Of a stretch of 64,000 bases of DNA, positions 1-18,810 are shown piece after piece. The notes below the pieces were generated by a model. The model was given only the letters and a program-made list of their open reading frames with translations. It searched no databases and was not told the DNA's origin. The stretch is taken from NCBI GenBank assembly GCA_029942545.1, contig GCA_029942545.1_4114.1. One strand, written 5' to 3'. The first letter of the stretch is position 1, and every line of letters starts with the position of its first letter. This DNA is from a phage. The translations under genes were made by a program, and so were the position numbers.

Positions 1-25
1 TCTCCCCGATACTAGGAGAATCAAA

Positions 26-178
26 ATGAAACAATACAACGCTCGGTTTGATGTTACTATCGGCAACGGCAAAGGTCAATTTTCTTTCAGTACTCGTAGG
101 AGTTATACAGAAAACTTCCTGCGTAATTGTGCACTGACAGCCGCACAAATTAAACATTACTTTCAGGCTAAAAAATGA
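26..178 (+). CDS. small hypothetical protein (50 aa)
   Basis: ATG at 26 with AGGAG at 14-18; stop TGA 176-178; below ORF-track cutoff; overlaps next ORF by 4 nt (ATGA). Confidence 0.35.
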   Translation: MKQYNARFDVTIGNGKGQFSFSTRRSYTENFLRNCALTAAQIKHYFQAKK

Positions 179-264
179 AATCATTAGCTTATTACAGTTC
201 GGCCCTGGTCGGTGCATTGATCGCGGCATTGTTAGTAACCTATCTATTCTTTATGGTGATTTAA
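175..264 (+). CDS. small hydrophobic peptide (29 aa), possible membrane peptide
   Basis: ATG 175 overlapping upstream stop; translation MKSLAYYSSALVGALIAALLVTYLFFMVI; stop TAA 262-264. Confidence 0.25.
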   Translation: MKSLAYYSSALVGALIAALLVTYLFFMVI

Positions 265-402
265 ATGAATCCTAACGGTTTAATTTACAGTACTCCTAAA
301 ACGAAAGCAGATAAAGCGAAAGCACGTAAAGCGAAAGTAAAGGAGTACATCAAGCAAGGCATGACGCGAAAGGCGGCGATTCTGAAAGCTAAAAATAAAT
401 GA
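265..402 (+). CDS. small basic hypothetical protein (45 aa)
   Basis: ATG 265 directly after upstream stop; lysine-rich product; stop TGA 400-402. Confidence 0.3.
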   Translation: MNPNGLIYSTPKTKADKAKARKAKVKEYIKQGMTRKAAILKAKNK

Positions 403-605
403 AAAAGTGGTTGACTTCGGTCAGCCATTTTGCTATTATATATTCATTGAGAGATAGCTCACTAGCCCACAGGGTGCAGGAGTGTATCTATTGTATAATG
501 ATTGAGTACAGAAAACTATTTTAAAGTATTTGATAAAAAGTACTTGCATACTATCTCAATAGGCGTATAATGTTTTACATCGCAAGGGGAAACGGTTTCC
601 CCTGG
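401..605 (+). repeat. intergenic cassette R, copy 1 (terminator-like hairpin / promoter-like TTGACT-N17-TATTAT, conserved box AGCCCACAGGGTGCA, second promoter, 5' hairpin)
   Basis: A-run + hairpin TGGTTGAC/GTCAGCCA 408-427 + T-rich tract; box 464-478; near-identical copies at ~2091, 4096, 7238, 9163. Confidence 0.6.
544..571 (+). promoter_or_regulatory. sigma70-type promoter (TTGCAT-N16-TATAAT)
   Basis: -35 544-549, -10 566-571; followed by hairpin 586-602 and RBS AAGGAAA before ATG 623. Confidence 0.55.
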
Positions 606-622
606 TAATAAGGAAACGAATC

Positions 623-964
623 ATGACTATTGCAATTGCTCAATCTAACTTTGAAAACGAAATCATCGCTCAGGTACTGCGTTTAAATGATGGTCGGGCC
701 GAAATCAATTACGGTTTCAATAGTGGTGGATGTGAAAAATATCAGTACTTTATAACTGCTGATGGCGGTGTCCTGGGCATCAATACCGTTATTGTAAACA
801 TTCAGAAAATTAATTTCAATGATCCAGACGATAGCCAGTTTTACATCACGGGCGTAGACGTGAACTATGAGGATGACTCACTAACTGATGATCACACTGG
901 TGAGAAGTTAGAAAGTGCATACGGTGAAGATGATTATCAGTCCGGTCCAGAAGATTTCGAATAA
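623..964 (+). CDS. hypothetical protein (113 aa)
   Basis: ORF track; RBS AAGGAAA 6 nt upstream; own promoter and 5' hairpin. Confidence 0.7.
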   Translation: MTIAIAQSNFENEIIAQVLRLNDGRAEINYGFNSGGCEKYQYFITADGGVLGINTVIVNIQKINFNDPDDSQFYITGVDVNYEDDSLTDDHTGEKLESAYGEDDYQSGPEDFE

Positions 965-978
965 TATTAAAAAATAGT

Positions 979-1006
979 TTGACAATAGTTTTTAGTACTG
1001 TATAAT
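979..1006 (+). promoter_or_regulatory. sigma70-type early promoter (TTGACA-N16-TATAAT)
   Basis: -35 979-984, -10 1001-1006; AGTACTG in spacer; conserved TTTACAT downstream. Confidence 0.6.
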
Positions 1007-1018
1007 AGTTTACATGAA

Positions 1019-1038
1019 GGGGAGAAATGATTCTCCCC
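1019..1038 (+). other. conserved 5'-UTR hairpin (GGGGAGAA-ATGA-TTCTCCCC)
   Basis: perfect 8-bp inverted repeat just downstream of -10; recurs with compensatory changes before many early genes. Confidence 0.55.
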
Positions 1039-1056
1039 ACTAAGAGGAAAAACAAA

Positions 1057-1269
1057 ATGGCTAATATCCGCACTGTACTGAAAAATGCAAAACAAGTTTT
1101 ATTTTCTGATCATGAAAATTTCAACAAGGATATCACAGGTGTTCGGAATATCAAAGATGTAAAAAGTGTTATGGGTATCTATTGCAATATGAAACGTGTT
1201 GGCACGTTCGGCGATAAAGTACTATACCAGGCAGGGGATTACAATTTTACACTGACTATCATTAACTAA
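1057..1269 (+). CDS. hypothetical protein (70 aa)
   Basis: track ORF 1027 starts inside the hairpin loop; ATG 1057 has RBS AAGAGG upstream, so start moved. Confidence 0.6.
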   Translation: MANIRTVLKNAKQVLFSDHENFNKDITGVRNIKDVKSVMGIYCNMKRVGTFGDKVLYQAGDYNFTLTIIN

Positions 1270-1288
1270 AAATATTATCACAGTACTA

Positions 1289-1317
1289 TTGACAACGTTT
1301 GATAGTACTGGCATAAT
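1289..1317 (+). promoter_or_regulatory. sigma70-type promoter (TTGACA-N17-CATAAT)
   Basis: -35 1289-1294, -10 1312-1317. Confidence 0.55.
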
Positions 1318-1360
1318 AACTTTTATCAAGACAACGCATATTAATTTAAGGAATACTAAA

Positions 1361-1540
1361 ATGGCTATTATCGCAAAAACTGAAATCATCGGCCTGGATT
1401 CTATCATCATGACGTTTGAAGATCAAAAAGGGATGTATGTAGTTTCCTATGGTGATTATGTTCGGGAGTATGAAACGGTAGACGAAGCCTTTGAAAGTTA
1501 CATTCGCCAGGTGAATAAAGCATACGACGACTACCGCTAA
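1361..1540 (+). CDS. hypothetical protein (59 aa)
   Basis: in-frame ATG 1361 preceded by AAGGAA; track start 1289 lies in the promoter (non-ATG codon). Confidence 0.55.
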   Translation: MAIIAKTEIIGLDSIIMTFEDQKGMYVVSYGDYVREYETVDEAFESYIRQVNKAYDDYR

Positions 1541-1567
1541 AATATATTACCAGTACTATTAAATCTA

Positions 1568-1595
1568 TTGACAATGATTGATAGTACTGTATAAT
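1568..1595 (+). promoter_or_regulatory. sigma70-type promoter (TTGACA-N16-TATAAT)
   Basis: -35 1568-1573, -10 1590-1595. Confidence 0.6.
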
Positions 1596-1639
1596 AAGTT
1601 TTATAAACAGTAGTTAACTTAACCTAAGAGAGAAACAAA

Positions 1640-1783
1640 ATGATCGCACTGGATTCATTCATCGACGCAGTACTGGCAAAAACTGGCGAGGATCTGACCG
1701 CAGAACAATACGCGATGATCGAGCAATGCCAGCAAAACGGTAAATCGGTGAAAGATACTGTTAAGATTATCCGCAAGATGTAA
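1640..1783 (+). CDS. small hypothetical protein (47 aa)
   Basis: ATG 1640 with AGAGAGAAA upstream; stop TAA 1781-1783; followed by hairpin terminator. Confidence 0.45.
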   Translation: MIALDSFIDAVLAKTGEDLTAEQYAMIEQCQQNGKSVKDTVKIIRKM

Positions 1784-1790
1784 GAATATA

Positions 1791-1820
1791 GCCCACTGGT
1801 TAACGCTGGTGGGCTTTAAT
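1791..1820 (+). terminator. putative intrinsic terminator
   Basis: GCCCAC...GTGGGC stem followed by TTTAATCATTT. Confidence 0.45.
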
Positions 1821-1888
1821 CATTTACCCTATACAATGCCAGTACTAAACCGTTTAACTCGTTAGAATGCATTACAGGACGTTTAACA

Positions 1889-2086
1889 ATGATTAGCATG
1901 AAATCAGTACAAAAACAAATTGATACATTATCAAAAATTAAACGTAAACAGTACTCATTAGAATATACAATCAATGGTAACTATCATCTAATGAAAGAAA
2001 ATAATTTTATAGTCATTGATGAATCATTGCAGATCATTAGTATAGTACTGAAAGCATTAATCAATGACAGAAAAAAGTTAAAATAA
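1889..2086 (+). CDS. hypothetical protein (65 aa)
   Basis: ORF track; weak RBS. Confidence 0.4.
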   Translation: MISMKSVQKQIDTLSKIKRKQYSLEYTINGNYHLMKENNFIVIDESLQIISIVLKALINDRKKLK

Positions 2087-2090
2087 TCTA

Positions 2091-2234
2091 TTGACAAATT
2101 ATGCCAGTACTGGCATAATACTTACATCAAGACGAGAACGTCACTAACCCATAGGGTGCACAAATGTAGCTGTCTAATATTGATCAAAAAATGATCTGAT
2201 CAATACTTGATCAATTTGCGTAAAGTAGTATAAT
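2091..2234 (+). repeat. intergenic cassette R, copy 2 (variant: promoter TTGACA-N17-CATAAT, box AACCCATAGGGTGCA, GATC cluster, second promoter TTGATC-N16-TATAAT)
   Basis: box 2146-2160; four GATC within 2182-2212; second promoter 2207-2234. Confidence 0.5.
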
Positions 2235-2417
2235 TCTATGCAGTTGGTTAGACGAAAGGTTATGATTAGTAGTGGAAGTGTATAAAAATTTTCATGGTGT
2301 GGTGATCCGCACATATGGGGATGAATATGTCGTGTCGTATGGATTGGAAAAAGTAAGAACAAGTAATATACTTGTCGCGTTACAGTACTATAGTATTTTT
2401 ATAATGAGGTTAAAATA

Positions 2418-2675
2418 ATGGCTGTAGGATTCACGAAAGATGGGGCCGAGCAAGACGAGATTAACGCAGTGATTCAGGCCGCTGTTAACCACGCTAGAAC
2501 GCAAATTAACGCACAAATAGAATCACTGATACATTGCCTCGACTGCGGCGATAAAATCCCTGAGAATCGCCGCCAGGCAGTTAAGGGGTGTAAGTACTGC
2601 ATCACTTGCCAGGCTGATCATGATAGCATATTCAAACGCAATCCCCGTAATTGTTGGCATAGATCTATGAGATAA
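2418..2675 (+). CDS. DksA/TraR-family C4 zinc-finger protein
   Basis: CLDCGDKIPENRRQAVKGCKYCITCQ matches the TraR pattern Cx2C-N17-Cx2C with conserved IPExRR; RBS GAGG. Confidence 0.75.
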   Translation: MAVGFTKDGAEQDEINAVIQAAVNHARTQINAQIESLIHCLDCGDKIPENRRQAVKGCKYCITCQADHDSIFKRNPRNCWHRSMR

Positions 2676-2681
2676 AAAGTA

Positions 2682-2709
2682 TTGACAGTGCTGTTAGTTA
2701 GTGTATAAT
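2682..2709 (+). promoter_or_regulatory. sigma70-type promoter (TTGACA-N16-TATAAT)
   Basis: -35 2682-2687, -10 2704-2709. Confidence 0.55.
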
Positions 2710-2738
2710 ATTTTATATCTTAACTGAGGATTGAAATC

Positions 2739-3095
2739 ATGGGTATACAACATATCACGCGTACTACTGACAATGGTGAAATCACTGGTTATCAAGTACA
2801 AGGCAAAGTAGCACAATTGCAGTACTGGTTTGTTAAACGTGGCATTGTCGCACCAGATCTTGATTATGATCGTGTAGCGTTTATTGATTCTCTTTATGTT
2901 GATCCCGATAATCGCGGTAACGGTGAAGGTACTGAATTAATGAATGCCTTTATTGATGCCGCCGATGATTCAGATTGTATCATCTTAGAATGCGATACGG
3001 GAGAAGATAACGCATTTAATCTTAAAGAATGGTATGAAAGTTTTGGTTTTGAAGTACTGATGGACTGCGAATATCCTATAATGATTTTATCCTAG
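2739..3095 (+). CDS. GNAT-like N-acetyltransferase (small)
   Basis: LYVDPDNRGNGEGTELMNAFI fits GNAT motif A (R-x-x-G-x-G after a beta strand); RBS GAGGA. Confidence 0.55.
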   Translation: MGIQHITRTTDNGEITGYQVQGKVAQLQYWFVKRGIVAPDLDYDRVAFIDSLYVDPDNRGNGEGTELMNAFIDAADDSDCIILECDTGEDNAFNLKEWYESFGFEVLMDCEYPIMILS

Positions 3096-3098
3096 TAC

Positions 3099-3126
3099 TT
3101 GCAATTAGTTTTAAGTACTGTATAAT
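3099..3126 (+). promoter_or_regulatory. sigma70-type promoter (TTGCAA-N16-TATAAT)
   Basis: -35 3099-3104, -10 3121-3126; hairpin 3139-3157 follows. Confidence 0.55.
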
Positions 3127-3174
3127 AGTTTACATGAAGGGGAGAATAGTTCTCCCCACTACAAGGAAAGACAA

Positions 3175-3363
3175 ATGCAAAACTTATCAAGTATTTTAGT
3201 ACAAGATGATTTCGGTAATCCTGGAAGTGCTATCATTGTTCGGGGCAATAAGGCAACGTTTGTTATTGCTGGTGGACCTGTACAGCGTAGCATTAAAAAC
3301 AATGCAGTTACAATCAATAATGTTCGCTATCGCTTAGATAAAGAATTGATTCATAAACTTTAA
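3175..3363 (+). CDS. hypothetical protein (62 aa)
   Basis: ORF track; promoter + GGGGAGAA hairpin + RBS AAGGAAAG upstream. Confidence 0.6.
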   Translation: MQNLSSILVQDDFGNPGSAIIVRGNKATFVIAGGPVQRSIKNNAVTINNVRYRLDKELIHKL

Positions 3364-3371
3364 AAAAGTAT

Positions 3372-3399
3372 TTGACAAAGCATTATAGTACTGTATAAT
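3372..3399 (+). promoter_or_regulatory. sigma70-type promoter (TTGACA-N16-TATAAT)
   Basis: -35 3372-3377, -10 3394-3399; hairpin 3412-3431. Confidence 0.6.
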
Positions 3400-3448
3400 A
3401 GTTTACATGAAGGGGAGAAATGATTCTCCCCACTAAGAGGAAAGAAAC

Positions 3449-3661
3449 ATGCAAGGTCAACTAATCGTTCGTAAATGGTCTGATACTAACGAAAAACCGT
3501 GGGATGTTCAATATATCGGACCGGACGGTGTTTCACGTTATCAACCTGGCGTAACGCATAGTACTGAGCAATATGCCGCCGCTCACCGTGAACGCCTGTT
3601 AGAATCTATGAAACAGGGATTCTGTGAAAAATTCATTCAAGATCATTGGCTGAAAGATTAA
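3449..3661 (+). CDS. hypothetical protein (70 aa)
   Basis: ORF track; RBS AAGAGGAAAG. Confidence 0.6.
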   Translation: MQGQLIVRKWSDTNEKPWDVQYIGPDGVSRYQPGVTHSTEQYAAAHRERLLESMKQGFCEKFIQDHWLKD

Positions 3662-3678
3662 TAGAAGGAGTACAGCTT

Positions 3679-3771
3679 ATGCAAATGAATCCGATGATTA
3701 TTGTTTTAGCTGTACTTATGAACATTCATGCAATAGTAGAAGTATTAACGCAATCAGGAGTAATAAAATGA
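3679..3771 (+). CDS. small hydrophobic peptide (30 aa)
   Basis: RBS AGAAGGAG 8 nt upstream of ATG 3679; below track cutoff. Confidence 0.3.
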   Translation: MQMNPMIIVLAVLMNIHAIVEVLTQSGVIK

Positions 3772-3941
3772 TCCAAGTAGAATTATCAGTACTGAAAGAT
3801 CTGTTTTATCGGTTAGGTACTAATGGCGAGTATCCTAAAAGTGATACCGCAAAACTTTTTGTATCACTCGACTTATGGCAACGCGAACAATTAGTAATGT
3901 CCTGGCGTAAAGGTAAAGCAGATAGCGAGGTGAAAGCATGA
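3768..3941 (+). CDS. small hypothetical protein (57 aa)
   Basis: ATGA overlap with upstream ORF; contains RLGTNGEY, reminiscent of the family A motif. Confidence 0.4.
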   Translation: MIQVELSVLKDLFYRLGTNGEYPKSDTAKLFVSLDLWQREQLVMSWRKGKADSEVKA

Positions 3942-4087
3942 AAGAATTCTTATTCGAAGTAGTGTTTCAAGGTGTCGGTAGCAACCAACTGATTCGCTCA
4001 AGTGGTTACAATGTTAACCAGGCATGGAATAACATTAAACAAATGTACCCGAACGCTATCACCTATCGCAACCCGAAACAAGTTTAA
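3938..4087 (+). CDS. small hypothetical protein (49 aa)
   Basis: ATGA overlap; stop TAA 4085-4087; followed by cassette R copy 3. Confidence 0.4.
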   Translation: MKEFLFEVVFQGVGSNQLIRSSGYNVNQAWNNIKQMYPNAITYRNPKQV

Positions 4088-4095
4088 AAATAATT

Positions 4096-4263
4096 GAAAA
4101 AGGGATTGACTCCGGTCAGTCCCTTTGCTATTATATACGCATAGAAACAAATCAGCCCACAGGGTGCATAAATGTATCTATTATATGCTGGTGGCTAGTA
4201 CTATCAAGTACTGAAAACTATTTTATAAAAAGTACTTGCAAAGTATCACGATAAGCGTATAAT
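4096..4263 (+). repeat. intergenic cassette R, copy 3
   Basis: hairpin GGGATTGAC-TCCG-GTCAGTCCC 4102-4123 + T-rich; box AGCCCACAGGGTGCA 4154-4168; promoter TTGCAA-N16-TATAAT 4236-4263. Confidence 0.6.
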
Positions 4264-4351
4264 GTTTTACATCAGGACGGGGAACGAAATAAGTAACCCC
4301 GTTAAGTAGTCCAGGAGTAAGACATACGAAAACCTCCCCTGATAAAATAGT

Positions 4352-4379
4352 TTGACAATAGAAATTAAACGAGTATAAT
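4352..4379 (+). promoter_or_regulatory. sigma70-type promoter (TTGACA-N16-TATAAT)
   Basis: -35 4352-4357, -10 4374-4379. Confidence 0.55.
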
Positions 4380-4409
4380 ACTTACATCAACCACAAAGAG
4401 GAATACAAA

Positions 4410-4610
4410 ATGAAACATTTTACTTTCGGTGTAGTAGGCTTTACAGTATCCAGCGGCGTTTATAAATCAGAACGCGGTGCTAAAAATGCAGCAAGTCGGG
4501 CGTATGGTTCACAGCGTGACTTACAGGTCGGTTATATTAGTAACATTAATAACATGTTTATTCCTGTTGCACAGCGTAAAGCGGGTAACATGAAATGGGA
4601 AACAATTTGA
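4410..4610 (+). CDS. hypothetical protein (66 aa)
   Basis: ORF track; RBS AAGAGGAA. Confidence 0.6.
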   Translation: MKHFTFGVVGFTVSSGVYKSERGAKNAASRAYGSQRDLQVGYISNINNMFIPVAQRKAGNMKWETI

Positions 4611-4619
4611 TAAAATAGT

Positions 4620-4647
4620 TTGACAATAGTTTTTAGTACTGTATAAT
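4620..4647 (+). promoter_or_regulatory. sigma70-type promoter (TTGACA-N16-TATAAT)
   Basis: near-identical to promoter 979-1006. Confidence 0.6.
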
Positions 4648-4677
4648 AGTTTACATCTTAATTAATAAGGAAACATC

Positions 4678-4812
4678 ATGAAAGCAGCAAACAACACTAA
4701 AAAAGCAACCAATCCCCTGGCTGGCTGGAAGTTAGATTTATCCGATGAAGTGGTTTGCACAAATCGTAATGTAGTTGAAGCTGAAAAGAAATTACGAAAA
4801 GAAAACAAATAA
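4678..4812 (+). CDS. small hypothetical protein (44 aa)
   Basis: RBS TAAGGAAA before ATG 4678; promoter upstream; the overlapping minus-strand track ORF 4662-4988 is rejected. Confidence 0.4.
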   Translation: MKAANNTKKATNPLAGWKLDLSDEVVCTNRNVVEAEKKLRKENK

Positions 4813-4815
4813 GTA

Positions 4816-4843
4816 TTGACAAAGTATCTTAGTACTGTATAAT
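4816..4843 (+). promoter_or_regulatory. sigma70-type promoter (TTGACA-N16-TATAAT)
   Basis: -35 4816-4821, -10 4838-4843; hairpin GAGGGGAA/TTCCCCTC 4858-4876. Confidence 0.6.
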
Positions 4844-4899
4844 AGTTTACATCAAGTGAGGGGAATGGTTCCCCTCCTAACAAAAAGAGAGAAATTAAA

Positions 4900-5223
4900 A
4901 TGACTATGTTCCTTACCCAGAAAGTAGAAATGAAAATTGTAACTTCCTTTGACATTAAAGTTAATCGGTGGACTGATAGCCACGGCAATACTTACCACTC
5001 ATGCTACGTGTCTGCATTGATTGGTGACCGCTGGGAAGACCTGGGACATGAAACCTTTACTTACGGTTACGGTACACAAGGCGAATACACGGGCTTGGAG
5101 ATCATTAAAGAAACCGTTATAGGTTTCAACCCGAAAGAGAAAGTACTACACAGAATTGAGAAAGAGATCAACAAAGAAATTACAGTTCGATACTACGATG
5201 TAAAACGTAAGAAAGACATGTAA
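4900..5223 (+). CDS. hypothetical protein (107 aa)
   Basis: ORF track; RBS AAGAGAGAAA. Confidence 0.6.
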   Translation: MTMFLTQKVEMKIVTSFDIKVNRWTDSHGNTYHSCYVSALIGDRWEDLGHETFTYGYGTQGEYTGLEIIKETVIGFNPKEKVLHRIEKEINKEITVRYYDVKRKKDM

Positions 5224-5245
5224 TAGAATCCATTTAAAGTACTAT

Positions 5246-5274
5246 TTGACATTGCCCAGATAGTACTTTATAAT
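5246..5274 (+). promoter_or_regulatory. sigma70-type promoter (TTGACA-N17-TATAAT)
   Basis: -35 5246-5251, -10 5269-5274. Confidence 0.55.
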
Positions 5275-5322
5275 AGACTCTAACTTGTAGTACTAATTAA
5301 CTTAACTAATAGGATGTACACC

Positions 5323-5718
5323 ATGATTACTAAATTCTTCGCTACCCGTGAACAAGCTCGCATCGTTGCCCGTGAAGAAGGTGAAACATTTAAAGACATG
5401 GGCAAAGATGCACCGAAAGGACAACGCTGGGCGGTACAGTTCAAAGAGATCTCTGATATTGTGAATTCACCTGAGCCTGTACTTACAGCAGCAGAACTAA
5501 AGCAAGCTCAAGAACTGGCTGAAGTACTGAACGCTCAAGATGACTTTTTGAAAGGTTCTGATATTGAAGTTACAGTTAACGCAAATGCATGGACTCACGC
5601 GGATCACCTGGCAAACCTTAAGCGTCCAAGTGAACTGATTCGTAACCAGAAAGAGATCCGTCATGACCGTAAAGGAAACCGTGTAACAGTATACAGTAAA
5701 CGCCGCCAGGTTATCTAA
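5323..5718 (+). CDS. hypothetical protein (131 aa)
   Basis: AGGA 5311-5314 is 8 nt upstream of ATG 5323; track ATG 5314 sits too close to the RBS; alternative start 5314. Confidence 0.6.
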   Translation: MITKFFATREQARIVAREEGETFKDMGKDAPKGQRWAVQFKEISDIVNSPEPVLTAAELKQAQELAEVLNAQDDFLKGSDIEVTVNANAWTHADHLANLKRPSELIRNQKEIRHDRKGNRVTVYSKRRQVI

Positions 5719-5741
5719 TAACTTTGCAGTACTAACAACAC

Positions 5742-5766
5742 GGCGGGAACTATTCCCGCCTTTTTT
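5742..5766 (+). terminator. intrinsic terminator
   Basis: GGCGGGAA-CTA-TTCCCGCC followed by TTTTTT. Confidence 0.8.
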
Positions 5767-5780
5767 ATAGGATAAACAAA

Positions 5781-6035
5781 ATGATTAAGGTTCAACTATC
5801 AAACGATAATGTATTACGGGTACACTATAAAGCCCCACAGAGAATCATCACAAAGGCCGTACAGCTTGCTAATGAGTTTATTAATGGTAGTCTATTGCCT
5901 AGGAAGTTAAGCAACGGGAAACTACGTGTTATCGATGTAGACACTAACAATAGAATAGTGATCGAGAGTACTGGAAAAATTAATCTATATGAACACCAAC
6001 AATACAATAAAAAAATAAAACTAATATCACGTTGA
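5781..6035 (+). CDS. hypothetical protein (84 aa)
   Basis: ORF track; weak RBS. Confidence 0.45.
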   Translation: MIKVQLSNDNVLRVHYKAPQRIITKAVQLANEFINGSLLPRKLSNGKLRVIDVDTNNRIVIESTGKINLYEHQQYNKKIKLISR

Positions 6036-6060
6036 CAGTACTCAAATGTTTTAGTATTAT
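6032..6060 (+). promoter_or_regulatory. sigma70-type promoter (TTGACA-N17-TATTAT)
   Basis: -35 6032-6037, -10 6055-6060. Confidence 0.55.
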
Positions 6061-6093
6061 GTATCTATACCAACACAGAGAGAGAGAAACAAA

Positions 6094-6312
6094 ATGAAAT
6101 TATCTAAAATCGAAAAGAAAACTATTGATGAAGCAGTGAAGCACGGTTATACCTTTCGTAATGATTCACACTTCACTAGTTTTCAACAGGGAAACCGTAC
6201 CATCAAAAAACTCATTGATAAAGGTTTACTCACTAAGGTTGATAACGGGAACGGTGTAGAATATCAACCGACAGAAGACGCATTATCACTAAAGAAATAT
6301 TCTATTATCTAA
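6094..6312 (+). CDS. hypothetical protein (72 aa)
   Basis: ORF track; leader duplicated before the next gene. Confidence 0.55.
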   Translation: MKLSKIEKKTIDEAVKHGYTFRNDSHFTSFQQGNRTIKKLIDKGLLTKVDNGNGVEYQPTEDALSLKKYSII

Positions 6313-6341
6313 TTGACAGTACTCAAATGTTTTAGTACTAT
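6313..6341 (+). promoter_or_regulatory. sigma70-type promoter (TTGACA-N17-TACTAT), duplicate of 6032-6060
   Basis: same 17-nt spacer GTACTCAAATGTTTTAG as the upstream promoter. Confidence 0.5.
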
Positions 6342-6369
6342 GAATGCATACCAACACGGGGAAAACAAA

Positions 6370-6597
6370 ATGATTACTTTAGAAAAACGTATCAAAGAGA
6401 CTACCACGCTGGTGGAACTGTTAACCGTTCTTAAATGCCGGGTAACTCCATTCAGTACACCGGACTTTATCAACATGGTGGACGTTAACGGTCGCTATCG
6501 TATTGCGGTCGAACAAGGTACGGCAAAAGTATTCAGTACTAAAAATACGCGTGAAGTATTCCACGCAGTTCAAGTAAAAAAAAGTAGTTGCCATTGA
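6370..6597 (+). CDS. hypothetical protein (75 aa)
   Basis: ATG 6370 with leader CGGGGAAAACAAA; track start 6313 lies inside the promoter. Confidence 0.55.
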   Translation: MITLEKRIKETTTLVELLTVLKCRVTPFSTPDFINMVDVNGRYRIAVEQGTAKVFSTKNTREVFHAVQVKKSSCH

Positions 6598-6644
6598 TAG
6601 TAAAGTACTGTAATATAGTTTCATTAACTCAAGGAGTCAACACA

Positions 6645-7229
6645 ATGCGTAACTATACTAAATTCATCCGTTCACTTCATGCAATGGAAACCAACAAAGA
6701 GATCCTTTCAGCTTGTCGGTTAGCTGGACTGGAGATCGTCGGTGCGGGTTCTTCCCGTATTGTATTCGCTTTAAATGATCGGTTAGTGATTAAGGTCGCG
6801 AATTGTGATGCGGGTGTAGAACAAAATGAAACTGAATGTAAGGTATGGAATTTTTTAGATTATGACCGTCCGCACCTTAAACAGTTCTTTGCTAAAGTGC
6901 ATATGCATTTATGCGATCCTGATAATCTGTTTATTGTTATGGATCGTTTGAGTACTGCAAGCAAAGGCAGTGTAAAGCATGTAAACGCGTGCAATGAGTT
7001 AAAGTACAATATTAAACGTAACACTATTGAACGCCATCACCATTTCGCTGATGCTCTCAATCACGTTGATGATACATTATCCACACTAACGATAAGAGAT
7101 ATCAGAAAACAGAATATCGGCCAGGATCGCAACGGCTTGATTAAAGTACTTGATTACGGTTTAACCCGCAATATCTGGAATCAGTACTATAAAAAACGTG
7201 ATGTTAATGCGATAACTATAACACGATAA
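6645..7229 (+). CDS. protein-kinase-like protein (putative Ser/Thr kinase)
   Basis: Gly-rich loop IVGAGSSRIVF, VIKV lysine, catalytic-loop-like RDIRKQNIG, DYG in place of DFG; RBS AAGGAG before ATG 6645. Confidence 0.55.
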   Translation: MRNYTKFIRSLHAMETNKEILSACRLAGLEIVGAGSSRIVFALNDRLVIKVANCDAGVEQNETECKVWNFLDYDRPHLKQFFAKVHMHLCDPDNLFIVMDRLSTASKGSVKHVNACNELKYNIKRNTIERHHHFADALNHVDDTLSTLTIRDIRKQNIGQDRNGLIKVLDYGLTRNIWNQYYKKRDVNAITITR

Positions 7230-7237
7230 AAAAGATT

Positions 7238-7398
7238 AAAAAAGGGATTGACTCCAGTCAGTCCCTTTGCTATTATATATTCATTGAGAGATAACTCACT
7301 GACCCATAGGGTGCGGAAGTGTATCTATTATATAAGTATTCAGTACTGAAAACTATTTGATAAAAAGTACTTGCAAACTATCTCAATGAGCGTATAAT
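7238..7398 (+). repeat. intergenic cassette R, copy 4
   Basis: hairpin GGGATTGAC-TCCA-GTCAGTCCC 7244-7265; box ACCCATAGGGTGC 7302-7314; promoter TTGCAA-N16-TATAAT 7371-7398. Confidence 0.6.
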
Positions 7399-7453
7399 GT
7401 TTTATATCGAGAGGGGGAAATGGTTCTCCCTGGTACTAAAAGGAATCAAGACG

Positions 7454-7675
7454 ATGACTACTATGACCTGCGTTCACGCTTCAAATCTTCTGAATGATGC
7501 AGCATTTAAAGCAGGTGAAGAATATCAATGCTATCGGGATGAAAATAAAAAAGTTTTCGTCGTTGATGCTAACGGTTTCCATATTGAATTACAATCCGGC
7601 TTCACTGGTGTTGATGGTAAATCAGTATGGGGCGTACAGGATGATAACGGTACATATCATTTTAAACGTAATTAA
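7454..7675 (+). CDS. hypothetical protein (73 aa)
   Basis: ATG 7454 preceded by AAAGGAA; track start 7397 is upstream, before the leader hairpin. Confidence 0.55.
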   Translation: MTTMTCVHASNLLNDAAFKAGEEYQCYRDENKKVFVVDANGFHIELQSGFTGVDGKSVWGVQDDNGTYHFKRN

Positions 7676-7678
7676 GTA

Positions 7679-7706
7679 TTGACAAAGTATATCAGTACTG
7701 TATAAT
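7679..7706 (+). promoter_or_regulatory. sigma70-type promoter (TTGACA-N16-TATAAT)
   Basis: -35 7679-7684, -10 7701-7706; hairpin 7719-7737. Confidence 0.6.
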
Positions 7707-7759
7707 AGTTTACATCAAGGGGAGAATAGCTCTCCCCACCAATAAAAGGAAACAAAATT

Positions 7760-8032
7760 ATGTCCAGCTACTCCGCTACTATGATTATTAAAGATATGAA
7801 CGGTAATCCTACTTCTGCTGGTGGATCATTTGGTAACATTAACTTAGATGGTCGGTTATCAATTGAATCAGCCATCAATGCCGCGAAAGAAGTTTTTAAG
7901 AATGAATGTACTGTAAGCAAGCTGGATTATATGGGCTTCGCTATCGAGAAAACTAATCGTTTTGTGGACTACAAAAAACCACTGATGATTGATACTAACC
8001 TGAAAGCAAACGAAGTGGAATACTTATTATGA
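7760..8032 (+). CDS. hypothetical protein (90 aa)
   Basis: ORF track; RBS AAAGGAAA. Confidence 0.6.
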   Translation: MSSYSATMIIKDMNGNPTSAGGSFGNINLDGRLSIESAINAAKEVFKNECTVSKLDYMGFAIEKTNRFVDYKKPLMIDTNLKANEVEYLL

Positions 8033-8220
8033 CAGTAGAAGAAGTTAAAAAAGTACTGGCAGTACTACGCTATCATAATCATTGTAAGGTGAAGAATGAT
8101 CCTGATTATCTTGATTCATCGCTGGAAGAGGATACACTACAAGCAATAAGCCATATGCAAAAAATGCTTAAGCGTATGACCGAAAAGAACAGGCCGGACT
8201 ATATCGGAAATAAAATTTAA
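8029..8220 (+). CDS. hypothetical protein (63 aa)
   Basis: ATGA overlap with upstream gene. Confidence 0.5.
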   Translation: MTVEEVKKVLAVLRYHNHCKVKNDPDYLDSSLEEDTLQAISHMQKMLKRMTEKNRPDYIGNKI

Positions 8221-8227
8221 AAAGTAC

Positions 8228-8255
8228 TTGCATTGTAAGTAAAACAAAGTATAAT
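8228..8255 (+). promoter_or_regulatory. sigma70-type promoter (TTGCAT-N16-TATAAT)
   Basis: -35 8228-8233, -10 8250-8255. Confidence 0.55.
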
Positions 8256-8303
8256 GTTTTGCATAGGGGGAGATATCCTCCCCCACTAATAAGGAGTACT
8301 AAA

Positions 8304-8528
8304 ATGGCTAACTTTGATGAACTGATGCGGGAAGTAGCTACCCTGGCAGAAGAGAAGAAATCATTTGATTCTATCTATAACACCGCTTACAGTGATTCAG
8401 TACTGGCATGTACTCAGGATCAAAAAGATGAACTGATCGCCACCTATCATGAAGCATGGAAGTACTACCGCCAATGGGAGAAAGAAGAAAGCGAGTCTAC
8501 CATCAACGGCATCAATAATCTAATCTAA
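8304..8528 (+). CDS. hypothetical protein (74 aa)
   Basis: ATG 8304 with RBS AAGGAG; track start 8259 falls in the leader hairpin. Confidence 0.55.
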   Translation: MANFDELMREVATLAEEKKSFDSIYNTAYSDSVLACTQDQKDELIATYHEAWKYYRQWEKEESESTINGINNLI

Positions 8529-8602
8529 AGTTTTATTTCAGTACTATTGACAATGCGTGATAGTACTGATGTGATAACTTTACTAACTAAAGGGGAAACA
8601 TA

Positions 8603-8860
8603 ATGGAACAGTTTAAAACGTATCGGGTAAATCCAATCGCTACAGCCTACGTAGAAGACCATAAAACATTACCAGTACAGACACCAATCAAAGGCCGTAT
8701 CTATCGTGCTATGCAGTGGAATAACGCCTATAATGGCTATAAAGCGGTAGCGGCTGCAATGTACTTAGGGGATGGCGAATGGTTTGATCCAAATAATCCT
8801 GGTGCACTCGATAGTACTGAACAAATGACATGGGCCGACTATATCGAAGATATTTCATAA
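8603..8860 (+). CDS. hypothetical protein (85 aa)
   Basis: ORF track; RBS AAGGGGAAA. Confidence 0.6.
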   Translation: MEQFKTYRVNPIATAYVEDHKTLPVQTPIKGRIYRAMQWNNAYNGYKAVAAAMYLGDGEWFDPNNPGALDSTEQMTWADYIEDIS

Positions 8861-8867
8861 AAACTAT

Positions 8868-8895
8868 TTGACAGTACTACAAGATAATGTATAAT
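8868..8895 (+). promoter_or_regulatory. sigma70-type promoter (TTGACA-N16-TATAAT)
   Basis: -35 8868-8873, -10 8890-8895. Confidence 0.55.
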
Positions 8896-8948
8896 GTTTT
8901 ACATAGAGCGGGGGAATAGTTCTCCCGCACCTTTAGGAGTAAAACATT

Positions 8949-9149
8949 ATGTCAATCGCTAACGAATTGGTTGCAGTACTGAATGAAGCAAAAGCCAACT
9001 GCATCGATGTACAGATCAAAGAGCTTGGCAATGGCTTGATCGGCTGTACTTGTACAGTGCAAACGGCTACCGATTATCGGGAAGTGGAATCACTCGAATC
9101 ACTGGTACGGTATATTAAAATCCTGGTAGAAGATTGGAGAATCATCTAA
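8949..9149 (+). CDS. hypothetical protein (66 aa)
   Basis: ORF track; RBS TAGGAG. Confidence 0.55.
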   Translation: MSIANELVAVLNEAKANCIDVQIKELGNGLIGCTCTVQTATDYREVESLESLVRYIKILVEDWRII

Positions 9150-9162
9150 CAAAAAAGAATAA

Positions 9163-9352
9163 AAAAAAGGGATTGACTCCGGTCAGTCCCTTTGCTATTA
9201 TATACGCATAGACAAAAACTAGCCCACAGGGTGCAGAGAAGTATCTATAAGATAGTTAATAACGGTGAGTAACTATCTGCTGGTGGATGTAATGCCAGTA
9301 CTCAAAACTATTTCAAAAAAGTATTGACAAAGTATATCAGTACTGAGATAAT
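9163..9352 (+). repeat. intergenic cassette R, copy 5
   Basis: hairpin GGGATTGAC-TCCG-GTCAGTCCC 9169-9190; box AGCCCACAGGGTGCA 9221-9235; promoter TTGACA-N17-GATAAT 9324-9352. Confidence 0.6.
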
Positions 9353-9406
9353 GTATCTCGTAGGGCGGCAATAGTGCAGCCCACCTCCAAAAGAGCGAGA
9401 TATAAA

Positions 9407-9622
9407 ATGGCGTTAACCAAACAAGAAATTATCGACCGTATCAAAGAGTCAACTGGCTGGTATGTTGGGGACCGTTTAATTGTTAAAGTTCTCGATTATT
9501 CAAATAATCCTCTTGCACCGGAACCAGTGGCATACAAATTATCCTGGATATCTGCGTTTAGCGGTAAGCGTGAAAGATGTGTGTACTATCCGAACACAGT
9601 CGGGCTACAGTTCTGTAAATAA
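9407..9622 (+). CDS. hypothetical protein (71 aa)
   Basis: ATG 9407 after leader; track start 9374 lies in the leader hairpin. Confidence 0.55.
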   Translation: MALTKQEIIDRIKESTGWYVGDRLIVKVLDYSNNPLAPEPVAYKLSWISAFSGKRERCVYYPNTVGLQFCK

Positions 9623-9640
9623 ATTTTAATAGAAAAAGTA

Positions 9641-9669
9641 TTGACAAAGTATATCAGTACTGCAATAAT
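9641..9669 (+). promoter_or_regulatory. sigma70-type promoter (TTGACA-N17-AATAAT), duplicate of 9324-9352
   Basis: promoter and leader (GTAGGGCGGCAAT...) duplicated for two consecutive genes. Confidence 0.5.
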
Positions 9670-9722
9670 GTATCTCGTAGGGCGGCAATGGTGCGACGGC
9701 CCACAAAGTTAGGAGATTCACC

Positions 9723-10049
9723 ATGAGTACTTCAATCGCTATCGTTAAAGCTTTCATCCGTACCAATTTCGACCGCATTACTGTTGATGGTAATGATCGG
9801 GAAGTAGAATACTCTTTCATTGTTGCACAAACCGCAAACGGTGCACGCTATATCTTAAACGATAGTGAAGCTAACCACTACTTCTATAATAAAGGATTAC
9901 ACTACATCCCTAGCGAAGTAGTCTACAGTAAGATGAATAAGCTGGTAGACAAGATTAACGCTAAAGGTACTATCGATTTACAGTACTGGACCGAAACCGA
10001 TCCAGAATACGGATCACATCGTTACCTGAATCCAGGAATTAAAATGTAA
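9723..10049 (+). CDS. hypothetical protein (108 aa)
   Basis: ORF track; RBS AGGAG. Confidence 0.6.
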   Translation: MSTSIAIVKAFIRTNFDRITVDGNDREVEYSFIVAQTANGARYILNDSEANHYFYNKGLHYIPSEVVYSKMNKLVDKINAKGTIDLQYWTETDPEYGSHRYLNPGIKM

Positions 10050-15755: not shown

Positions 15756-15954
15756 TTCAGTAATATTACTTATAGAGAGTTCAAGTAAATTCTTAAACAT
15801 AACACTGTCTGATATAGATGAAGATGATAAAGAAGTACTGAGAGCAGATTTAAGAGTACTGTTACATATCGGAACAAACCTACAAGAAGAATATGTAGAG
15901 TGCTACATCAATGAACTTAAAGAATCAGTACTGAGAAAATGCAAATGCAAATGA
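15733..15954 (+). CDS. family A small paralog
   Basis: motif IGTNLQEEYV. Confidence 0.65.
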   Translation: MKILSKGDSVILLIESSSKFLNITLSDIDEDDKEVLRADLRVLLHIGTNLQEEYVECYINELKESVLRKCKCK

Positions 15955-18449: not shown

Positions 18450-18810
18450 ACAAGTAATATTCCTTTTGAATACAAGAAGTGAAATGTATACAGAGTTTAA
18501 AGAGATTAATGCATTTTATCAGAATTTTGTAATTCAAGAGTTCAGTGATTTAATTACAGATGCATTATTTGAATTATCGGAAAAATACAAAGGAACAGAG
18601 TTCAGTGTTAAAAATGTATTACGTTCTTTATCAACGCGTATAATAAAATTAGATCATTTTACATTTGACAATAAAGATTTATTCAGTCACAATCCAAGTA
18701 CAGCTTTATATTTTATTCCTGATTCAGACAAAAATCATCCTATTCATTACGGATGGATTTTGTCGTACATAGTACAAGGAAAGGAGTATCCTATTAAATG
18801 GAACGATTAG
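18421..18810 (+). CDS. hypothetical protein (129 aa)
   Basis: ORF track; no family motif. Confidence 0.5.
   Translation: MNPTIVQDLKQVIFLLNTRSEMYTEFKEINAFYQNFVIQEFSDLITDALFELSEKYKGTEFSVKNVLRSLSTRIIKLDHFTFDNKDLFSHNPSTALYFIPDSDKNHPIHYGWILSYIVQGKEYPIKWND

Follow-up and report, generated by a model that had tools for sequence, protein, structure and literature searches.

PeSL (promoter-early stem-loop) cassettes are known from T4-type phages (Arbiol et al. 2010; Comeau et al. 2014, PMC4122927). They join a terminator-like stem-loop to an early promoter of near-consensus sigma70 type, recur many times among the small ORFs of a hyperplastic early region, and mark the homology breakpoints of related genomes. 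In these cassettes the promoter comes after the stem-loop and runs directly into an SD and start codon, and no box has been described for them. The put elements of HK022 (putL and putR) form two stem-loops in nascent RNA just downstream of host-polymerase early promoters, and their structure is kept through sequence change; put is about 70 nt long, occurs in two copies per genome and always lies upstream of genes and terminators. The lambdoid nut sites (boxA and boxB) and the rrn antitermination leaders place a short purine-loop hairpin and a conserved linear sequence near early 5' ends, boxB being a 5-bp stem with a GNRA-like pentaloop. The RfaH element ops is a 12-nt invariant element of the early transcribed region in which a mini-hairpin is possible. 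Finally, the Pseudomonas jumbo phage PA5oct expresses two non-coding RNAs, ncRNA001 and ncRNA002, at high levels from its terminal repeat (2-5% of phage reads, PMC7318152).

Here we analysed a 64-kb stretch of DNA (64,000 nucleotides, the window) from a 121Q/PBECO4-type (Rak2-like) jumbo coliphage, a group to which PA5oct is distantly related. We describe a repeated unit in this DNA that shares features with each of these systems and matches no catalogued RNA family, which makes it a promising candidate for a phage non-coding RNA of a new kind.

Results

Five units in the window

The original prediction had proposed that an intergenic module with a conserved box recurs at five sites. This recurrence is real. 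The box RCCCAYAGGGTGCR is present without mismatch at 465, 2147, 4155, 7302 and 9222, all on the + strand, which makes five matches in 64 kb against 0.39 expected, and none of 100 shuffles reached five. A covariance model run on the 64 kb returned the same five units and nothing else (29.8-69.3 bits; next match 9.7 bits). All units of the window lie on the + strand within 442-9253. When the five cassettes were aligned, as had been proposed, the mean column identity was 65%. We also agree that the box goes beyond promoter, terminator and RBS consensus.

Copy 1 illustrates the full arrangement. A terminator-like stem-loop with its A-run and T-run (404..431; 12 pairs and a TTCG loop in the terminator scan) holds the -35 of the unit promoter, TTGACT-N17-TATTAT with a TG before the -10 (411..439). 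The predicted start, A446, rests on a 7-nt spacing and a CAT context. The RNA module (442..496; 59.6 bits, E=2e-17, with a box match) comprises a first hairpin, P1 (448-451/458-461, TGAG/CTCA, loop AGAUAG), a CUA linker, the box hairpin P2 (465-475, G-CCC-ACA-GGG-U) and a tail to about 491. Reading of the sequence and the ORF list placed behind it a second promoter with a weak -35, TTGCAT-N16-TATAAT (544..571), a leader hairpin (586-602) and the ATG at 623 of an ORF spanning 623-964. The compensatory changes noted in the stem of this copy, TGGTTGAC/GTCAGCCA versus GGGATTGAC/GTCAGTCCC, can indeed be read from the sequence.

Copy 4 has the same layout, with the hairpin found by the terminator scan at 7241..7268, the unit promoter TTGACT-N17-TATTAT at 7248..7276, a predicted start at A7283 and the module at 7279..7333 (69.3 bits, E=1e-20). 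Its P1 (7285-7288/7295-7298, UGAG/CUCA, loop AGAUAA) precedes P2 (7302-7312, A-CCC-AUA-GGG-U) and a tail to about 7328, and the second promoter is TTGCAA-N16-TATAAT (7371..7398). Copies 3 and 5 belong to a short class of units in which an A-rich stretch stands in place of P1. In copy 3, the terminator-scan hairpin (4099..4126) again holds the -35 of TTGACT-N17-TATTAT (4106..4134), and the module (4141..4186, predicted start A4141; covariance model 4145-4186, 34.6 bits, with a box match) opens with the A-rich segment AUAGAAACAAAUCA and has no stable P1, followed by P2 (4155-4165), a tail to about 4181 and a second promoter, TTGCAA-N16-TATAAT (4236..4263). Copy 5 carries the hairpin at 9166..9193 (terminator scan), TTGACT-N17-TATTAT at 9173..9201, a module at 9208..9253 (predicted start A9208; covariance model 9210-9253, 39.5 bits) with the 5' segment AUAGACAAAAACUA, P2 at 9222-9232 and a tail to about 9248, and a second promoter TTGACA-N17-GATAAT (9324..9352). 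ARN-like A-rich 5' segments are present in units.

The exception is copy 2, which has no terminator hairpin and whose unit promoter is TTGACA-N17-CATAAT (2091..2119; predicted start A2126). Its module (2125..2178; 29.8 bits, E=3e-7, with a box match) contains P1 (GACG 2131-2134 / CGTC 2139-2142), P2 (2147-2157, A-CCC-AUA-GGG-U) and a tail to about 2173, and its second promoter is TTGATC-N16-TATAAT (2207..2234). The proposed combination of A-run, hairpin and T-run with TTGACT-N17-TATTAT thus holds for copies 1, 3, 4 and 5 only. Similarly, a second sigma70-type promoter is found in all five copies, while the leader hairpin expected behind it is clear in the same four and not in copy 2. The distance to the box, given before as about 25 nt, is corrected to 21-27 nt from the -10 hexamer to the start of the box.

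Occurrence in Rak2-like phages

Absence from related genomes would have spoken against a functional box. We found the opposite, since conservation of the element extends across phage genera. About 117 distinct units were counted among Rak2-like phages, including RaK2, GAP32, CBB, 121Q, Munch, fHe-Yen9-03 and metagenomic contigs, whose hosts are Escherichia, Salmonella, Klebsiella, Cronobacter, Pectobacterium and Yersinia. The units cluster in the terminal-repeat or early region, within the first 9-21 kb of the stretches examined, and lie inside annotated terminal repeats in CBB and other relatives. Each genome or terminal repeat has 5-13 copies. On either genome strand, every box follows a near-consensus sigma70 -10 of the same orientation at a distance of 18-30 nt, and in these phages the box never occurs without such an upstream promoter.

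What lies downstream is less uniform. Of the 117 units, 48 have a further promoter behind them, 42 a convergent twin and 14 a terminator (counted within 120 nt), and only 4 lead straight into SD and ATG. Accordingly, 56 of 117 run toward a twin or terminator without any gene downstream. Twin boxes form inverted repeats at discrete spacings of 45, 56 or 63 nt, and some units are antisense to genes. In the window, each of the five units is directed at a promoter and gene further downstream. The terminator scan found no intrinsic terminator ending the unit RNA before the next promoter in any of these five, so a discrete small RNA would need processing there. The units do not look like the discrete gene, ending in a Rho-independent terminator with a U-tail, that is typical of an Hfq-type trans-acting sRNA: such terminators follow 0 of 5 window units and 14 of 117 overall.

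In marking places where homology between related genomes breaks off, the cassettes (each about 200 bp) resemble the PeSLs of T4-type phages. A terminator-like stem-loop is joined to a sigma70-type promoter in copies 1, 3, 4 and 5 and in 41 of 116 units across phages, and dozens of promoter cassettes lie among ORFs of 40-130 aa in the 1-10 kb region of the window, where nearly every gene has its own strong promoter. Breakpoints of BLAST homology, judged from the ends of joined alignments only, coincide with cassette edges at 390/402, 4085, 7460 and 9248. Several features distinguish the units from PeSLs. Their -35 lies inside the stem, the SD and start codon rarely follow directly, and they insert a conserved RNA module, 55 nt long and with 12 invariant nt in its box, usually together with a second promoter. 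Unlike PeSLs, some of them form convergent twins or run antisense to genes.

Probable structure of the RNA module

The original prediction had called for RNA structure and covariation analysis of the module. We found that P1, a stem of 3-5 bp between the predicted start site and the box, covaries strongly. At each of its four pairs there are 3-5 pair types, 43-57 sequences carry changes in both partners and pairing holds in 94% of cells; these counts come from a model-fitted alignment, and an ungapped alignment gives the same stems. The complementarity is specific to each instance (z=12.5 versus permuted partners). P1 loops are purine- and A-rich, for example GAGAAA, GCGAAA, AGAUAA and AGAACAA. 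P2 is a 4-bp mini-hairpin, R-CCC-AYA-GGG-U, formed by the box itself. RNAalifold independently returned P1 and P2, with the R(-1):U9 pair as A-U in 68 sequences and G-U in 42. The P2 loop has 3 or 4 nt (AYA, UAUA, UAGA, UCAA), and CCU/AGG double changes are present.

The module reads, in order, as a start site in a CAU context, P1, a UAR linker, P2, GC and the tail RGARNU-NYRUCYAU, with the two adjacent hairpins spanning +3 to +31. The unit reaches about 14 nt past the box, and conservation ends about 30 nt after the box start: information content is 2 bits over the box and below 0.5 bits in the flanks, fading after about +30. Because P2 and the tail are almost invariant, their structure is not provable by covariation, and an alternative pairing of GGGUG with YRUCY fits the data about as well as P2. 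Folding of single sequences was weakly better than shuffles (z from -1.0 to -1.75), and neither a pseudoknot nor a closing helix of the module was supported (z from -0.2 to -1.1).

These results bear on the possibility that the box is a signal in DNA, either an operator bound by a protein of phage or host, or a -35-like element (CCCAYA-N17-TATWRT) recognised by a phage-encoded activator or sigma factor. All 12 bp of the box are invariant, a TATWRT resembling a -10 follows CCCAYA by exactly 17 bp, a sigma factor containing regions 3 and 4 is encoded by CBB (PMC5259590), and twin boxes are inverted repeats at discrete spacings, all as such a signal might appear. However, P1 keeps complementarity and not sequence, the gap between CCC and GGG varies between 3 and 4 nt, G-U pairs are valid on the box strand only, and no box lacks its same-orientation sigma70 promoter. 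Furthermore, the final T of the putative -10 is 43% conserved, while U21 and C22 in the supposed spacer reach 83-85%. We consider a DNA signal improbable. Among the three options first offered for the box, an RNA made from the first promoter is favoured by promoter linkage, P1 covariation, G-U pairs and loop-length changes, and the same evidence disfavours a protein-binding site in double-stranded DNA; it speaks neither for nor against a processing site.

The P1 data also address whether the cassettes are mere PeSL-like recombination or regulatory repeats in which the box hitch-hikes, its similarity maintained through gene conversion or recent duplication. The cassettes of one genome share 87-97% identity with their counterparts elsewhere, homology breakpoints coincide with cassette edges and PeSL cassettes are documented in T4-type phages (PMC4122927). 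Yet the box is invariant across genera whose flanks fell to less than 0.5 bits, and P1 stems turned over completely while staying paired. Gene conversion explains neither, leaving this reading with a very small probability.

An RNA from the opposite strand, starting near an ATATAAT antisense to the tail and ending at the hairpin, is less probable still and nearly negligible. Copy 3 has TTGATA-N16-TATAAT on the minus strand, where the + strand A-run becomes a strong U-tract and gives the hairpin its better U-run, but this promoter is not conserved in other copies or other phages. About 65% of all units, copy 2 included, have no terminator hairpin, and the G-U pairs of P1 and P2 would become A-C mismatches on the minus strand. 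Taken together, the data make it very likely that the module functions as RNA on the box strand. In this reading the box is the centre of a transcribed two-hairpin module of about 50-55 nt and not a site in DNA.

Database searches

In Rfam 15, cmscan of window positions 1-10000 (E<=10) found no family covering the box; the only three matches, to snR56, antisense_SR1 (on the terminator) and sR46, were weak and unrelated. Among 185,579 bacterial and archaeal species genomes, the unit had no match in Enterobacterales, and literature searches returned no match for the module. The 64-kb window contains no complementary target site for it. ncRNA001 and ncRNA002 of PA5oct are longer (236-451 nt) and have no sequence match to the unit (best covariance model score 7.4 bits).

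A conserved, structured 5' RNA with invariant nucleotides that is frequent in phage DNA and absent from Rfam could in principle be a small ribozyme or a ligand-sensing leader (riboswitch). However, the module consists of two short hairpins only, the tertiary pairings tried found no support, and it shows no consistent link to an expression platform or gene class, so we give this idea little credence.

Comparison with elements acting on RNA polymerase

A more serious alternative is that the module acts co-transcriptionally in cis, the nascent RNA modifying its own RNA polymerase, either unaided or together with a factor from phage or host. One such mechanism would be processive antitermination, as in HK022 put or lambda nut, allowing polymerases from unit promoters to read through downstream cassette terminators; another would be a programmed pause close to the promoter, stabilised by a hairpin and serving to load a factor, as at ops. 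Like put, the module would place two adjacent hairpins at the very start of early-promoter transcripts, is multicopy and keeps structure through sequence change. In the window, units head gene blocks of 2-3 kb bounded by terminators. P1 loops such as GCGAA(A) and GAGAA(A) presumably resemble boxB-type GNRNA loops. The pause consensus is G(-10)/Y(-1)/G(+1), and G10 and Y19/R20 fit it at a distance of 10 nt from the P2 base. A role in transcription itself could also be indicated by the terminators associated with units and by the fixed spacing of twins.

Other observations do not fit. With a twin or terminator ahead, 56 of the 117 units lack any gene that antitermination could serve, and almost all genes in the region have their own strong promoter; genomic context thus argues against put-like antitermination in cis for about half of the units. 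In contrast to put, which differs in sequence, the units are far more numerous, P1 and P2 are much smaller, and support for P2 comes mainly from loop-length variation. No boxA (CGCUCUUA / UGCUCUUUAACAA) was matched near any unit and the lambda boxB sequence was not found at units. The 3-5 bp stem of P1 and the GNGAA with which many of its 6-8 nt loops begin resemble boxB; the loops are longer than in boxB, some begin with A, and short-class units have no stem. Order and spacing differ from nut, and the phage group is unrelated. The ops sequence GGCGGTAGnnTG, on the non-template strand of the leader, had no match within 2 mismatches at any unit. The box is unrelated to it, is linked to a covarying RNA hairpin upstream and is absent from enterobacterial genomes. 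We therefore regard action in cis as possible but rather unlikely.

Discussion

Roughly one unit in two belongs to a convergent twin or runs into a terminator, and we read the units as a multicopy early RNA that acts as RNA. Since no gene lies behind these units, the module most likely does not depend on a downstream gene for its function, although whether it acts in trans or independently of a gene, as opposed to regulating the gene downstream, stands at roughly even chances as a separate claim. Overall, it is most likely that the unit RNA acts in trans or on RNA polymerase and is carried on PeSL-like terminator-promoter cassettes.

The sequences themselves establish the anatomy and strand of the module, the covariation of P1, the linkage to promoters, the clustered multicopy distribution and conservation between phage genera. 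We infer its start sites, RNA ends and abundance. On this basis, the units would be transcribed heavily by host RNA polymerase right after infection, and the first 55 nt or so would be the functional product, present as an abundant early small RNA or a processed 5' fragment. P1 and the 5' position may give the module stability and presentation, and the invariant surface of P2 and the tail may bind a conserved partner, which could be protein or RNA, from host or phage. We give this explanation as a whole about even odds.

We tentatively suggest, as a minority possibility, that the module represents a class of phage RNA not recognised before, which Rak2-like terminal repeats would supply in many copies during the first minutes after infection. 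It would either reprogram host RNA polymerase without help from a protein or act as a decoy for a conserved host factor through the RCCC-AYA-GGGU hairpin and tail. If the former were true, it would be a miniature put-like element or a pause module; if the latter, it would serve host take-over or anti-defence.

A cassette recurs five times in the early region

The first 10 kb of the window shares 88-97% identity, in patchy blocks, with 121Q, PBECO4 and ~110 further Escherichia/Salmonella jumbo myoviruses (BLAST). It is packed with plus-strand ORFs of 40-130 aa, almost each of which has a near-consensus sigma70 promoter. The original prediction was that an intergenic cassette with a conserved box recurs here, and we found five exact matches to RCCCAYAGGGTGCR in the window, all on the plus strand, where 0.39 were expected. 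The five cassettes (copies 1-5, at ~401, 2091, 4096, 7238 and 9163) align with a mean column identity of 65%. An A-run, hairpin and T-run had been described for every copy; they are present in copies 1, 3, 4 and 5, with hairpins of 9-12 bp, but copy 2 has no hairpin, and its promoter is a plain TTGACA-N17-CATAAT. In the other four, promoter and hairpin overlap, with the -35 TTGACT in the 5' arm and TATTAT 17 nt further on. The base changes in copy 1 indeed preserve the hairpin stem, and a second promoter lies downstream in all five copies. Thus, the recurrence of the cassette is confirmed and the description of copy 2 is corrected.

In copies 1, 3, 4 and 5 the hairpin forms a terminator with an embedded promoter (404-439, 4099-4134, 7241-7276 and 9166-9201), composed of an A-run, a GC stem holding the -35 TTGAC, a UUCG/UCCG loop, a T-run that serves also as promoter spacer, and the -10. 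Across genera, 41 of 116 units (a unit being the sigma70 promoter and the ~55-nt RNA module that follows it) have the -35 enclosed by a terminator-like hairpin, whose loop is mostly UUCG. This compact part could be of use in synthetic biology. BLAST homology ends at 390/402, 4085, 7460 and 9248 of the window. The cassettes resemble the promoter-early stem-loop cassettes (PeSLs) of T4-type phages in being composite stem-loop/promoter repeats of a hyperplastic early region at which homology ends (PMC4122927). Homologous cassettes are found within the annotated direct terminal repeats of several relatives (vB_Ec-M-J, fENko-Kae01, Muenster and CBB).

Several further features of the window were recorded. 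Ordinary early genes (leaders at 1007-1050, 3127-3175, 3400-3448, 4844-4900, 7707-7760 and others) have a common leader, in which CAUGAA/CAUCAA is followed by a GC-rich stem-loop of 8 bp (GGGGAGAAnnnnUUCUCCCC), ACUAAGAGGAAA and AUG; these stem-loops are probably the 5' stabilising hairpins of PeSL-like cassettes. Terminator-like hairpins also occur outside the cassettes, at 1787-1815 (GCCCACTGGTTAACGCTGGTGGGC and TTTAAT) and at 5742-5760 (bidirectional GGCGGGAACTATTCCCGCC and a T-run). The end of a very lysine-rich ORF of 45 aa (265-402; MNPNGLIYSTPKTKADKAKARKAKVKEYIKQGMTRKAAILKAKNK) adjoins the copy 1 terminator, and the product could bind nucleic acid. Directly 5' of copy 4 lies an ORF of 213 aa (6588-7229) whose counterparts are annotated as serine/threonine protein kinase (Turkey5; Munch gp046), and Munch repeats the order kinase, small gene, unit (unit at 18750). 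AGTACT occurs 216 times in 1-64000 compared with 16.7 ± 3.5 expected, a ~13-fold excess, in both coding and non-coding DNA and often in promoter spacers or directly 5' of the -35 (AAAAAGTACTTGCA); stretches at about 10.8-15.8 kb and 18-25.6 kb are free of it.

Distribution of the unit among phages

A 191-bp cassette query matched 74 phage records in 2-20 places each, including Klebsiella RaK2 and K64-1, Cronobacter GAP32, Pectobacterium CBB, Salmonella Munch and 7t3, and Yersinia fHe-Yen9-03, at 67-77% identity. We then defined 93 units by regular expression from loci of Munch, CBB and fHe-Yen9-03 and from IMG/VR pattern hits, after removal of the many that were taken as chance (G+C >0.44, no promoter). 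One box-pattern match, at ~4700-4790 of an unrelated IMG/VR contig (L014), lies in a tRNA-like sequence with a long variable arm (…AAATCCGCACCCTGTGGGTTCGACTCCCAC…) and was likewise rejected as a chance hit. From 34 of the 93 units we built a covariance model, which gave 126 hits, 117 of them distinct. On the window it detected only the five known units, at 29.8-69.3 bits, and everything else scored at most 9.7 bits. In the stretches examined, units are restricted to the beginning of the sequence: the first 9 kb in the window, 21 kb in CBB (terminal repeat 1-22,456), 20 kb in Munch and 16 kb in fHe-Yen9-03.

An Rfam scan at E≤10 returned no family matching the unit. A host origin was rejected: when 185,579 species genomes of bacteria and archaea were scanned with a specific pattern, the 3 hits all fell outside Enterobacterales, and at this stringency the element is phage-specific. 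The box sequence was not found in the phage literature searched, nor is it described in the papers on CBB and phAPEC6; the promoters described for CBB are of RpoD-like, TGAAACG and late types only (PMC5259590). A literature search for a transcriptome from the Rak2-like group found none. In the distant relative PA5oct, two ncRNAs are strongly expressed from the terminal repeat (PMC7318152). These (764-999 and 652-1102 of the comparison sequences L149 and L150) share no motif with the unit and gave no covariance model match; abundant terminal-repeat ncRNAs may recur across the wider phage group that includes PA5oct.

The module is very probably a structured RNA

Positions are numbered from the first C of the box CCC (position 0). 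The distance from the end of the upstream -10 hexamer to this C is 18-30 nt, with modes at 26-27 and 21-22. Transcription is predicted to start at an A in the context CAU, 7 nt past the -10, which in the window falls at 446, 2126, 4141, 7283 and 9208. Between start and box lies a hairpin, P1, whose stems differ wholly among units yet remain complementary (GGAG/CUCC, GCCA/UGGC, AGACA/UGUCU, UCGAA/UUCGA, GACG/CGUC, AGCA/UGCU, UGAG/CUCA and others). Complementarity to the unit's own partner greatly exceeded that to permuted partners (z=12.5). In the alignment fitted to the covariance model, each of the four pairs showed 3-5 pair types, with two-sided changes in 43-57 sequences and 94% of cells paired; shuffles and slid registers all fell far below this. 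P1 loops are purine- and A-rich, with AA at -10 and -9 as their last bases. A short class of units, which includes copies 3 and 5, keeps the A-rich stretch AUAGAAACAAG with little or no stem. The single-sequence fold stability of the window copies is unremarkable (z -1.0 to -1.75).

The box follows a U(-3)A(-2)R(-1) linker. Independently, RNAalifold paired R(-1)-CCC with GGG-U9, as A-U in 68 sequences and G-U in 42. Divergent units have loops of 3 or 4 nt (AYA, AGA, UAUA, UAGA, UCAA, UUUA) and two CCU/AGG double changes in the stem. On the strength of this pairing, the loop-length variation and the double changes, the 12-nt box is best read as a 4-bp mini-hairpin, P2. Beyond it, conservation extends through G10, C11, RGARNU (12-17) and NYRUCYAU (18-25) and is lost by ~+30. 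An alternative helix, GGGUGC/GYRUCY, competes with P2: ~93% of cells are compatible with it, it agrees with the Y19/R20 pattern and one GGGCGG/CCGUCC variant compensates, but 63 of the 117 sequences lack its third pair. Covariation does not separate the two helices, because the G's never vary.

Other candidate structures were rejected. A closing helix of 5' AUAGA/AGAUA with the tail UAUCUAU, although it is drawn in the MFE fold of each of the five window copies, has no instance-specific complementarity (z -0.2 to -0.8), and a pseudoknot between P1 loop and tail is unsupported (z=-1.1). A mutual-information scan of box and tail revealed neighbour effects only. A small ORF inside the unit was dismissed for want of a conserved start codon.

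Together, the constant association with a promoter, the covariation of P1, the G-U pairs and the variable loop length argue that the element has very probably been selected at the RNA level, and the G-U pairs identify the box strand as the RNA strand. A minus-strand sRNA ending at the hairpin was rejected, as it has no conserved promoter, the G-U pairs suit the plus strand only and the hairpin is absent from most units. That the box works as double-stranded DNA, as an operator or as an alternative -35 element, we consider quite improbable. Hitch-hiking on recombination repeats alone is scarcely credible, since conservation across genera and the turnover of P1 stems effectively rule it out.

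Genomic contexts and possible action

Conservation is confined to the first ~55 nt, independent of what lies downstream. Another sigma70 promoter follows within 230 nt in 48 of the 117 distinct units, as in the window, and 42 belong to convergent twins. A hairpin and T-run lie within 120 nt downstream in 14 units, which are mostly antisense to the adjacent gene block, and a Shine-Dalgarno sequence and ATG immediately follow another 4. Convergent twins were located in Munch (L001, ~7415-7470) and in the comparison sequences L032 (6035-6149), L004 (2774-2895 and 8026-8161), L015 (973-1106), L063 (1225-1358) and L003 (281-416). The spacer between twin boxes measures exactly 45 nt in 13 pairs, 56 nt in 3 and 63 nt in 5. 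Spacers of 56 and 63 nt contain a Fur-box-like palindrome, which departs from the 19-bp Fur consensus at 2 positions in Munch (GATAATGATAATCATTTAC) and at 3-6 in other twins; no such site occurs in the 64-kb window, where the closest match (at 15947) has 4 mismatches.

The ~55-nt limit of conservation, the approximately half of units without a downstream gene, the high copy number and the strong promoters suggest that the module itself would be the product, not a regulator of the next gene. The main rival is co-transcriptional action on the module's own RNA polymerase, through antitermination like that of put, nut or ops or through a hairpin-stabilised pause near +19/+20. Its position and two-hairpin form fit such a role, whereas the gene-less units fit it poorly, and no boxA, boxB or ops sequence was found at the units; we regard this action as unlikely. 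From a transcribed structured RNA we infer a trans-acting binder, in which an abundant early RNA would offer the invariant surface of P2 and tail to a conserved partner. That this RNA acts in trans or gene-independently we hold with belief and doubt in equal measure. Targets complementary to the box were not found beyond chance within the 64-kb window.

Significance

The jumbo phages of the Rak2/121Q group rely on the RNA polymerase of their host, and no function is known for >80% of their genes. The element described here, a structured RNA module close to its promoter, is conserved, occurs in many copies, is specific to Rak2-like jumbo phages and is carried on PeSL-like terminator-promoter cassettes. 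By analogy with T5, its home, the terminal-repeat or early region, may enter the cell ahead of the other DNA. With an invariant core, many copies, its own near-consensus sigma70 promoters and this location, the module provides a concrete and cheap experimental handle. An action on RNA polymerase would make the module only the second type of self-acting antiterminator or pause RNA known from phages, and a role as decoy would place it among the few known RNA-based devices of take-over or anti-defence.
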